IMG/VR virus record: IMGVR_UViG_3300021289_000002
Span: 1-58,325 of that record
Length of the DNA stretch: 58,325 nucleotides
Direction: 5' to 3' (one strand)
Source: a virus
Lineage: Duplodnaviria; Caudoviricetes
How positions within the stretch are numbered: the first letter of the stretch is position 1; every line of letters starts with the position of its first letter. This document shows positions 50,351 through 52,141 of this stretch, one piece after another. The translations under genes and the position numbers were made by a program. A model generated the notes under the pieces. The model made no database searches. It was not told the DNA's origin and worked only from the letters and a program-made list of their open reading frames with translations.

Positions 50351-50580
50351 CGTTCTATCTCGGGTTTGATTGGTTGTGGGTTAGGTTTGTCTCGACGTTT
50401 CAAAAGCCAAACCAGAAAGAATTCAATCAGCGGAAACGCGAAGACTATTACGACGATTGCACGCAGCAGCTTCCGCAATTGCTCGATTCGTTTCATCCGG
50501 GCAAGGTGGTCCGATTCGATGCGGTCTAGCTCGGCTTTGAATTGCTCGGTTATCTGGTCGGCTTCATCTTGAGGGGTCAT
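50347..50580 (-). CDS. Small membrane-anchored protein
   Basis: Coiled coil plus TM helix; coupled to DUF5131. Confidence 0.5.
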   Translation of the reverse strand: MTPQDEADQITEQFKAELDRIESDHLARMKRIEQLRKLLRAIVVIVFAFPLIEFFLVWLLKRRDKPNPQPIKPEIER

Positions 50581-50585
50581 AGGTT

Positions 50586-50789
50586 CTAAGGGCGTGGCTT
50601 CTCGCTCGCAATCGCTTCCATGCATCGCTTGATCTCAAGTAGCGCTACGGAGGTTACGGCCTGGATATTTCCGATGTGTTGCTCGTTGGATGGAATTTTC
50701 ATCAACACGTCAGCGTGGATTTCAATATTCTTTAGACACTCTACGATTTTATCGGTCATAAGAGTTTGGTCAGAAAGGGACTGGTTCAT
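50586..50789 (-). CDS. Hypothetical protein
   Basis: ORF in operon orientation. Confidence 0.5.
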   Translation of the reverse strand: MNQSLSDQTLMTDKIVECLKNIEIHADVLMKIPSNEQHIGNIQAVTSVALLEIKRCMEAIASEKPRP

Positions 50790-51249
50790 CCTCGGGAACT
50801 ACAGGCGCTCGATCACGATCGTGGCGCCCTCGTTTCCACTTTCGCACAGCTCGCATTTTACGAAGTGCTCGGGGATCGCCGTCCAACAGTCGTCGGGCGG
50901 TAATGAGGCAATCAAAGAGCGTAGAGACGCATCCATCGGCGTCGCACCGGTGGCGATCTGAAAAGCGGAGCGTAATTGTGATTCGAAAAGTCGGGCTGCT
51001 TTTTGCATCCACTCCCGATGCTCGGGCAACGTGATGGGTCGGGCCATTATCTTTCCGGTTTTCTTGTCCATCCACGCGAACGCCCGCTTCGCGTTCTTGA
51101 ACGATGGCACTTTTCCCAGCCCCTTGATCTCCAGGACTATTTTGGGACTGGGCGGCGAGGGCAGTAGCTCGAGCTGCGTCTTCGGCTTGCAGTTGGGATT
51201 TGATTCGCTCGGCAAGTTTGGGGTCGTCGATTTCATGAAGTCGGATCAT
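50770..51249 (-). CDS. RusA-like protein, frame B (central catalytic segment)
   Basis: ATGA-coupled to J-domain gene; FRITITLRFSDRHRCDADG..TLFDCLITA matches RusA [17 protein letters not shown]. Confidence 0.55.
   Translation of the reverse strand: MIRLHEIDDPKLAERIKSQLQAEDAARATALAAQSQNSPGDQGAGKSAIVQEREAGVRVDGQENRKDNGPTHHVARASGVDAKSSPTFRITITLRFSDRHRCDADGCVSTLFDCLITARRLLDGDPRALRKMRAVRKWKRGRHDRDRAPVVPEDEPVPF
50799..51236 (-). CDS. RusA-like protein, frame A (N-terminal strand/helix and C-terminal DD/strands)
   Basis: IVLEIKGLGKVPSFKN...REWMQKAA...PPDDCW...GATIVIERL. Confidence 0.6.
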   Translation of the reverse strand: MKSTTPNLPSESNPNCKPKTQLELLPSPPSPKIVLEIKGLGKVPSFKNAKRAFAWMDKKTGKIMARPITLPEHREWMQKAARLFESQLRSAFQIATGATPMDASLRSLIASLPPDDCWTAIPEHFVKCELCESGNEGATIVIERL

Positions 51250-51848
51250 TTTATTTGTGCCTCGAATTGCTGCCAGGCGAGCCGAACCAGGTGGAACTTT
51301 TCAACGTCCCCGTTTTTGTCCGGATGATGCTCTTTGACCATGCGCAGGTAAGCAGCTTTTACATGGTCGGCAGGGGCGTTGATAGGCACTCCAAGGACCT
51401 CCCACCATTTAAACCCGGAGCTTTCGCCAATGCCAGGCAGCGCCATGTAGCCGCGAAAGGCTTGCTCGATGGTGCCAATTCCCCAGCGCTCTTGCCCTCT
51501 CAGCGCTTCGATATGTTTGGCCAGCGCCCAAATGTTATCCTCAACGTGAATCCACTTGTCGCCCGCCAGTGAGACGGGCCTGTCCTTGATTTTGAAGTAA
51601 ACGGCTACGCCAGGATCGGCCAATGTGGCCACATTCGACAACGGTGCTTGGCTTACTTTGGACCGGGGAATATTGCTGCTCATTAGCCAGTTGCCATCGC
51701 CAACCAGCCGGCGCATTTCCAGCAATAGAGCGTTCCACGCCACGGCAACGGACCTCGCCTCGAACCGGCTTACTTGCCGATGGTGCGGCGCCGTGCGGGG
51801 CCACTGTTCCGGCCAGCAAAGAGGATACTTTGAAACTTCCTCGTTCAT
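51246..51848 (-). CDS. Phage J-domain (DnaJ-like) protein
   Basis: YPLCWP..WPRT, DPGVAVYF, ERWG and WWEVLGV...HHPDKNG motifs. Confidence 0.88.
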   Translation of the reverse strand: MNEEVSKYPLCWPEQWPRTAPHHRQVSRFEARSVAVAWNALLLEMRRLVGDGNWLMSSNIPRSKVSQAPLSNVATLADPGVAVYFKIKDRPVSLAGDKWIHVEDNIWALAKHIEALRGQERWGIGTIEQAFRGYMALPGIGESSGFKWWEVLGVPINAPADHVKAAYLRMVKEHHPDKNGDVEKFHLVRLAWQQFEAQIK

Positions 51849-52141
51849 TGAAGCGTGCCGACTTCTTGGGCGTAGTTCAGGAACTTCTTAATTTTCTTAA
51901 TTTTGGCTTCGGTTTTTTCCTCGCTTAGCCAGTTGTCAGGAAGAGTGCCGTTTTGGATCAGCAAACAAACAACAGCCATAAAATCATTAAGCTCATCGAT
52001 CAGACGCTGGCGGTTAGTAGGGCCGGATGGATAAAGTATGTTTACATCGTCTATTCCAAATCGAAGGGCTTTACTGCAATCCTTTGCCACCTCGTTAGCT
52101 TCTTCGGAAAGACAAACCAGTAAGTGTTCTTTTGAATTCAT
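51845..52141 (-). CDS. MazG-like nucleotide pyrophosphohydrolase
   Basis: EEANEV....SKALRFG...ELND acidic helical motif. Confidence 0.65.
   Translation of the reverse strand: MNSKEHLLVCLSEEANEVAKDCSKALRFGIDDVNILYPSGPTNRQRLIDELNDFMAVVCLLIQNGTLPDNWLSEEKTEAKIKKIKKFLNYAQEVGTLQ

Follow-up and report, generated by a model that had tools for sequence, protein, structure and literature searches.

Two fully overlapping reading frames of a viral genome and their possible co-folding into a RusA-like resolvase

Phage lambda carries the embedded gene pair Rz/Rz1, in which two genes lie on the same strand in different frames, both are functional and their products form a complex. Programmed ribosomal frameshifting, as in dnaX and prfB, is another way in which two frames are put to use. 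RusA (PF05866; E. coli DLP12 rusA, PDB 1q8r) is a resolvase whose fold, a four-stranded sheet with two helices, is made by a single chain. In its description (PMC1636454), the catalytic residues of RusA are D70, D72, K76 and D90/D91, R69 binds DNA, and S13 contacts DNA. Here, we analysed IMG/VR record IMGVR_UViG_3300021289_000002 (Duplodnaviria; Caudoviricetes), a complete viral record of 58,325 bp (CheckV completeness 100%, G+C 56%), hereafter referred to as the window. Two open reading frames (ORFs) on its minus strand, ORF A and ORF B, occupy the same bases; ORF B is in the -1 frame of ORF A, which is itself in the +1 frame of B, and B covers A entirely. Comparison with related loci establishes, at the level of sequence, that both frames are conserved, that selection alternates between them along the locus, that their starts and stops are maintained, and that a block of frame B is RusA-like. 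We consider it fairly probable that these are overprinted polypeptides which co-fold into a RusA-like resolvase, each chain being disordered along the stretches in which its partner is structured.

The family of frame A is large. A word-indexed search returned 44 frame-A homologues with identities of 38-65%, none of which has a Pfam domain, and a HMMER search of 1.84 billion representatives returned 458 clusters (at 50% identity) at E <= 0.001, of which 391 reach E <= 1e-10. The best 150 HMMER matches each cover the whole profile as a single stretch. Alignment-based scans gave 33 loci that, with the window, made 34 hits of the frame-A hidden Markov model; removal of 10 identical duplicates left 24 distinct loci. 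A second scan, with distant members as seeds, added 12 further loci, for a total of 36 distinct loci from many samples, with identities of 37-65%. Single-sequence scans of viral contigs retrieved no relatives, whereas the alignment-based scans did. Searches of 50,697 GenBank phage records by tblastn, with A and with B, gave no match at E <= 0.01, and no cultured phage carrying the family was found in the GenBank phage records searched.

In all 36 distinct loci (24/24 and 12/12), no stop interrupts frame B between its own start and the end of a block consisting of a strand, the motif RRxDxDG and a helix. The original prediction had asked whether B stays open in homologues of A, and the block is indeed retained throughout, with a DPTG variant in one subfamily. 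The consensus of this block is R[IV]x[IV]xLRFSDxRRxDxDGxxSTxxDC, and all 37 sequences compared have its residue D103. Stops interrupt the third frame 6 times across A in the window and 4-17 times per locus overall. In the 34 complete loci, B extends past the stop of A in 15 and stops shortly after the helix in 19, never before the helix. Frame B is also open over the N-terminal half, where A is selected, in 22/22 complete loci; the chance of this is 0.14-0.73 per locus under a conservative null drawn from the same regions and 0.006-0.37 when the codon usage of the whole window is applied, values that are not independent and not simply multipliable because the loci are related. With a profile of the B translations, 18 database proteins were found that are called in frame B, none of them a one-frame fusion. 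In one subfamily of B (P0046-P0061, L009, L024, L125), RRDxDGCxST is replaced by RRDPTGAxET, with loss of the second Asp and gain of a Glu four residues on, which may be a relocated acidic residue.

To locate selection, the 22 complete loci were aligned by codon (L032 and L033, which run off their contigs, were excluded), and nucleotide entropy was calculated for each codon position and compared by Wilcoxon tests. The segments that we distinguish are listed in Table 1. In segment 2, variability is highest at the wobble position of A in 31 of 47 columns (p = 1.8e-6), and the same holds for segment 6 in 21 of 34 columns (p = 1.7e-4). In segment 4, a short segment with a modest p value of 0.04, the maximum falls at the wobble of B, which is the second position of A, in 11 of 14 columns, and several third positions of A are invariant. 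The corresponding linker of A, residues 91-106, has high entropy and not a single indel in 188 frame-A proteins, and the predicted local distance difference test score (pLDDT) of A is 60-68 across this segment. In the same 188 proteins, D116 of A is kept in 100% and D115 in 98%. Segment 3 is where helix 1 of A and the strand of B are encoded by the same bases, as the original prediction had seen. Here, neither wobble is dominant (7 versus 6 columns). Residues Q87 (93%) and L88 (96%) of A, both on wobble positions of B, are kept among the 188 proteins, so that selection on B alone cannot account for them. Dual constraint is limited to about 13 codons, where the end of helix 1 lies over the B strand, and to a few codons before LPxDD. 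In segment 7, P and F are conserved and variation is found at the wobble of B only; this segment and the N-terminal columns of B were analysed in 13 of the 22 loci, namely 12 that share one type of N-terminal motif and L015. Judged from this variability, purifying selection acts on both frames and switches between them along the locus, in the order A, B, A.

Seen in a single window, such a locus would be compatible with gene decay or with an assembly error. The original prediction had named as its alternative an ancestral rusA with two compensating indels, the similarity in B being a relic. This is refuted by the two-frame layout, which is conserved in 36/36 loci at identities of 37-65% and belongs to a family of 458 frame-A clusters, and by the purifying selection that acts in frame B over the B block. 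The assembled contig of the probable source run is identical to the window across 50500-51900, with zero indels. This run is the single one that covers the locus (3 other runs have no coverage of it), so that the read data do not add independent support; among RNA runs, none was listed as containing the locus. Both ORFs are real and are neither a chance occurrence nor an assembly error, and the probability that we leave to decay or misassembly is negligible.

Outside the block, frame B has conserved ends. At least three types of N-terminal motif are found (L001-L033, L116-L127): M-x-P-D-E-L..KG[FY]V..DGxW, MPxWTxE[EQ][LY]..Y and M..DE[IL]...[FY]PxA..F[IL]..N, each kept within its own subgroup. 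Long versions of B end in [VPLI]-P-F following an Arg-rich tail, in the window and in L001, L003, L005, L006, L008, L009, L013, L014, L016, L019, L020, L022, L024 and L125. Of the 21 B translations that were aligned (L027, L032 and L033 were left out), 14 have a PF end, as do 15 of the 18 database B proteins. This end resembles the IPF tip of bacterial SSB, which docks partner proteins; by this analogy, the C-terminal PF of B may be a candidate recruitment motif.

The starts of the two ORFs are conserved as well. The upstream stop overlaps the start of B, or lies within 4 nucleotides (nt) of it, in 16/22 loci, and the genes upstream of B vary between loci. The ATG of A is 4-34 nt downstream of the start of B. 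In 19/19 loci that use this arrangement, and in at least 6 sequence contexts, it is formed where a NAT codon of B precedes a G; in the rest of the locus, T makes up only 29% of NAY wobbles. At the other end, the start of the next gene is coupled to the stop of B (TGATG or TAATG) in the long-B loci, and to the stop of A in the short-B loci. By these features each ORF has its own maintained start codon, and both ORFs show signs of full-length translation.

A different use of the two frames was also put forward in the original prediction, namely a recoding event. Ribosomes in frame A would slip by -1 before the B strand and by +1 after the B helix to make one A-B-A chain, with full-length A and B as by-products. 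Such a chain would agree with RusA being ordinarily a single chain, as stated in PMC1636454, and with the order of the three selected pieces along the DNA, which is that of RusA. Moreover, a 1-nt deletion in L033 relative to L021 (L033:1440-1751, L021:1440-1850) puts the DCL of B in frame with the LPHDD of A. This deletion, located 14 nt from the end of the contig, probably reflects an error at the contig end; no other natural one-frame join was seen. The sequence signals expected of recoding are not conserved. In 3/22 loci there is a canonical -1 slippery heptamer close to junction 1, at no shared position, and RNAalifold found 0 pairs over the junction region in 22 aligned sequences. A double frameshift is an unlikely candidate. 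Joined chains are also poorer matches to RusA. In the A-B-A join, helix 1 is trimmed to about 10 residues and the RusA match extends over the B part only, with a score of 29.9 versus 39.9 for B alone. The +1 read-through P0327, from B into A, matches phrog_34 with E = 0.52 versus 0.012 for B alone and has no match to Pfam RusA. A simple splice of the frames is rejected because the joined chains score worse against RusA. Finally, recoding needs neither the openness of B upstream (22/22), nor its coupled start, nor its conserved PF, nor the selection on A at Q87/L88, yet all of these are observed. We regard programmed recoding as very unlikely, and return to two separate chains.

Frame B holds the RusA-like piece with the DxD motif that the original prediction had assigned to it. 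The family phrog_34 matches 16 of the 21 B translations, with a best E value of 1.4e-4, and its sole match in the six frames of the 58-kb record is at 50851-51003 (E = 3.7e-4). A search of the PDB with the B profile had as its top match E. coli RusA (1q8r, residues 44-91), with an E value of 0.075 that is not significant alone. In alignment with hhalign to 72 RusA genes (distinct sequences of 95-170 aa, from 80 genome loci), B 76-118 corresponds to RusA 43-86 with a probability of 83-91% and P = 1.3e-6 to 9.5e-6. The B block aligns with DRRRRDLDN of RusA, and D103 and D105 correspond to D70 and D72 in an RRRDxD context after strand 2. Frame B keeps RRxDxD and a later Asp in the helix; its own Asp at the position of D90/D91 is not conserved. 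The same strand-helix block is matched by phrog_1532, a family of unknown function with 80 profile positions, in 6 of the 21 translations (best E = 2.1e-4; for example L010 and P0049), and short ORFs similar to B may therefore be present among phages that have been sequenced. In metagenome-assembled genomes of Planctomycetota and Phycisphaerae (L079-L115), one-frame RusA genes of the canonical type, with PPSxN, are common, some with a C-terminal CxxC..G extension.

Frame A has the motifs that the original prediction had described, and its elements (PS..N, DD, end strands) occur in the order of RusA; their identity as RusA elements has no statistical support. The motif PSFKN is conserved among the 188 proteins (P44 88%, S45 80%, K47 99%, N48 86%), and its alignment with PPSxN of RusA is not significant (P = 0.38-0.58). 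The top local hhalign match aligns the DDs of A to RusA 89-92, again weakly (P = 0.13). These weak best alignments are in collinear registers, A 41-72 with RusA 13-45 and the DDs with RusA 89-92, and we take this collinear order as a lead, not as a test. When A was modelled alone by AlphaFold2, it had a pLDDT of 82 with a linker of low confidence. A profile search of the PDB with frame A did not find RusA, and the ESM Atlas had no usable match for A, with a predicted template modelling score of 0.20 for its model of A alone. The complete single-chain RusA fold is in neither frame alone.

We then considered A and B together. For prediction of the complex, residues 30-145 of A, with an alignment of 132 of the 188 frame-A proteins, were combined with residues 72-136 of B, with a 37-row alignment (P0046 and P0047 were omitted because they duplicate the B sequences translated from L009 and L024). 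The interaction prediction score from aligned errors (ipSAE) of A with B was 0.61, 0.59 and 0.65 in three runs, while the best control had 0.00. Among 80 solved complexes, approximately 58 attained this mark, as did 2 among 110 mismatched pairs, counts that hold only roughly because our own alignments were used. The runs share at least 82% of contacts, with a partner pLDDT of at least 63 and about 180 interface contacts. The closest predicted pairs are two strands side by side, A 138-142 and B 90-94, and two packed helices, A 77-85 and B 111-118. Both A 80-92 and B 86-97, the products of segment 3, are within this predicted interface. So are residues 112-116 of A, and the invariant DD adjoins B 102-123. 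The model supports the view that A and B bind one another.

Several observations weigh against a resolvase that is composed of A and B. Pfam RusA (PF05866, cut-off 22.8 bits) matches neither A nor B (0/21 B translations, and none in the six frames of the record). PHROG gives no RusA match for frame A (0/45 sequences), and its hhalign comparison with RusA gives P = 0.11-0.69. Foldseek with the AlphaFold2 models of A alone (pLDDT 74.8 and 82.2) returned nothing at E <= 0.001, and no RusA among the matches listed. In B, the counterpart of K76 is absent, the aligned residues being S/T, or E in the subfamily that has DPTG instead of DxDG. A ribosome-binding site for the start of A was not identified. 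The kinship among the loci makes the per-locus probabilities of openness non-independent, and the test for segment 4 is modest. The ipSAE is the own confidence of the predictor, and memory of the RusA fold could produce such a score.

The main rival explanation draws on part of the same evidence. It describes overlapping genes without a resolvase, in which A belongs to an unrelated family, B is a RusA-derived remnant kept for a different role (for instance, in binding DNA or in recruiting a partner), and the two products need not bind each other. It would account for the lack of significant RusA similarity of frame A by any method, for the missing K76 and the DPTG variant, and for the conserved N- and C-terminal motifs of B, which are foreign to RusA. 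It does not sit well with the predicted interface, which completes a sheet with its many contacts and has an ipSAE well above the controls. Furthermore, A alone has no match to a solved fold and has a low-confidence gap of fixed length where the elements of B would sit, its invariant DD is in the predicted interface beside B 102-123, and its weak top alignments to RusA are in the expected collinear registers. We judge this explanation to be unlikely, and keep co-folding of A and B as the preferred reading. The assembly in trans suggested by the original prediction is thus sustained in part: dual selection, the maintained starts, the conserved C-terminus of B and the ipSAE speak for it, whereas the RusA likeness of frame A is not significant. 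The support is partial because the RusA-like motifs of A are without statistical backing, and because the two products and their cleavage of DNA are putative.

The co-folding of A and B could proceed as follows. Ribosomes that end the upstream gene would initiate ORF B at the ATGA overlap, and ORF A would be initiated by ribosomes at the ATG 13 nt downstream of that of B. Each chain has a fixed-length hydrophilic linker where its partner chain is structured. Frame B would supply the strand, RRxDxDG and the helix, equivalent to the catalytic hairpin of RusA, and frame A would supply strand 1, PSFKN, a hairpin, helix 1, LPxDD and two end strands. In the predicted arrangement, the B strand is inserted next to the last strand of A and the B helix packs onto helix 1 of A, which would give a RusA-like domain made of a sheet and two helices. 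D103 and D105 of B, together with D115 and D116 of A, may form a composite acidic site. Such an enzyme would act on branched DNA, resolving it as part of the replication and recombination module of the phage. The nuclease activity and the composite active site are inferred.

In its widest form, our proposal is that one nuclease domain exists as two interdigitated chains, whose frames time-share the DNA, whose initiation is coupled and which co-fold with a composite site. The arrangement would be stable across hundreds of soil-phage lineages, would probably have come from a one-frame rusA by frame-splitting, and the free ends of B would add recruitment functions. We put forward this proposal as a whole tentatively, as a real possibility that falls a little short of an even chance. 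With regard to the origin taken by itself, either frame-splitting of a one-frame rusA or overprinting could have led to the locus. If true, one fold would be stored in two reading frames simultaneously and rebuilt after translation, and the notion of a gene used in annotation would change. The locus would also be a compact natural model for co-translational assembly, for selection shared by overlapping frames and for the origin of overprinted genes, and a resolvase role would become likely for at least 458 protein clusters that lack a Pfam annotation.

The positions that the original prediction gave for the two overlapping minus-strand ORFs, for the ATGA coupling to the upstream gene and for all motifs were confirmed on the sequence (Table 1). 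Gene callers give just one of ORFs A and B at this locus, and both remain 'hypothetical'. By codon-usage score, frame A is preferred towards either end of the locus, and no preference between the frames is seen in its middle. The neighbouring genes encode a Dam methylase, a MazG-like protein, a DnaJ-domain protein and a DUF5131 protein, a set that resembles a replication and recombination module. Between 49400 and 52923, genes on the minus strand are tightly packed, with overlapping stops and starts. For the downstream ORF of 67 aa (50586-50789, minus strand), the true start may be the in-frame ATG at 50757-50759, 11 nt beyond the stop of B; in homologues with a long B, the following gene begins at the stop of B or shortly beyond it. 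ARAGORN found no tRNA genes in the 58-kb record.

Table 1 Coordinates of the features of the ORF A/ORF B locus in the window.
Feature	Position	Strand	Description
ORF B	50770..51249	-	159 aa; N-terminal motif, hydrophilic linker, RusA-like strand and RRxDxDG helix, Arg-rich tail, C-terminal PF
ORF A	50799..51236	-	145 aa; strand 1, PSFKN, hairpin, helix 1, fixed-length variable linker, LPxDD, end strands
ATGA overlap	51246..51249	-	shared by the ATG of ORF B and the TGA that ends the upstream DnaJ-domain gene (51246-51848)
ATG of ORF A	51234..51236	-	formed by B codons CAT-GAA, 13 nt past the ATG of B
PSFKN (frame A)	51093-51107	-	
DD motif (frame A)	50889-50894	-	
Frame-B conserved block	50896-50994	-	
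Segment 1	51160..51249	-	N-terminus of B, residues ~1-30; A is an unconserved pre-strand; some columns vary most at the wobble of B; alignment weak for the type of the window
Segment 2	51000..51143	-	A is the selected frame, residues 32-79 (strand 1, PSFKN, hairpin, start of helix 1); B is an open, unconstrained linker
Segment 3	50959..50999	-	double constraint: C-terminal half of A helix 1 (80-92, ESQLRSA) over the B strand (86-97)
Segment 4	50905..50958	-	B is the selected frame, residues 98-115 (DRHRCDADG...STLFDCL; D103, D105, D113); A is a variable linker of fixed length
Segment 6	50802..50903	-	A is the selected frame, residues 112-145 (LPPDD and terminal strands); B is an Arg-rich tail
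Segment 7	50770..50781	-	C-terminal VPF and stop of B, past the stop of A

No report of a dual-frame RusA was found in the literature searched, which consisted of listings and the beginnings of abstracts. When compared with dnaX and prfB, the locus is similar in that functional protein segments are found in two frames of one mRNA. It differs in having no conserved slippery site or stimulatory structure, and in that a coupled start and a conserved end belong to the second frame itself. The likeness to phrog_1532 is in the strand-and-helix block of B. The Rz/Rz1 pair resembles the locus in that two ORFs are in different frames of one strand; here, the complex is predicted. However, the overlap in our locus is nearly total and selection on the frames alternates by segment, and its products are predicted to complete one small domain, while those of Rz/Rz1 join two separate folds. 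RusA is likewise among the closest known systems. Residues 76-118 of B, which include the strand, the RRRDxD region and the helix with a conserved Asp, align with RusA 43-86, and the locus is likewise placed in a phage replication/recombination module. In contrast to RusA, the fold is in no single frame, the Pfam model matches neither product, K76 is missing, and B has additional N-terminal and PF-terminal motifs. RusA is a homodimer of one chain, whereas the domain described here is predicted to be built from two distinct chains.

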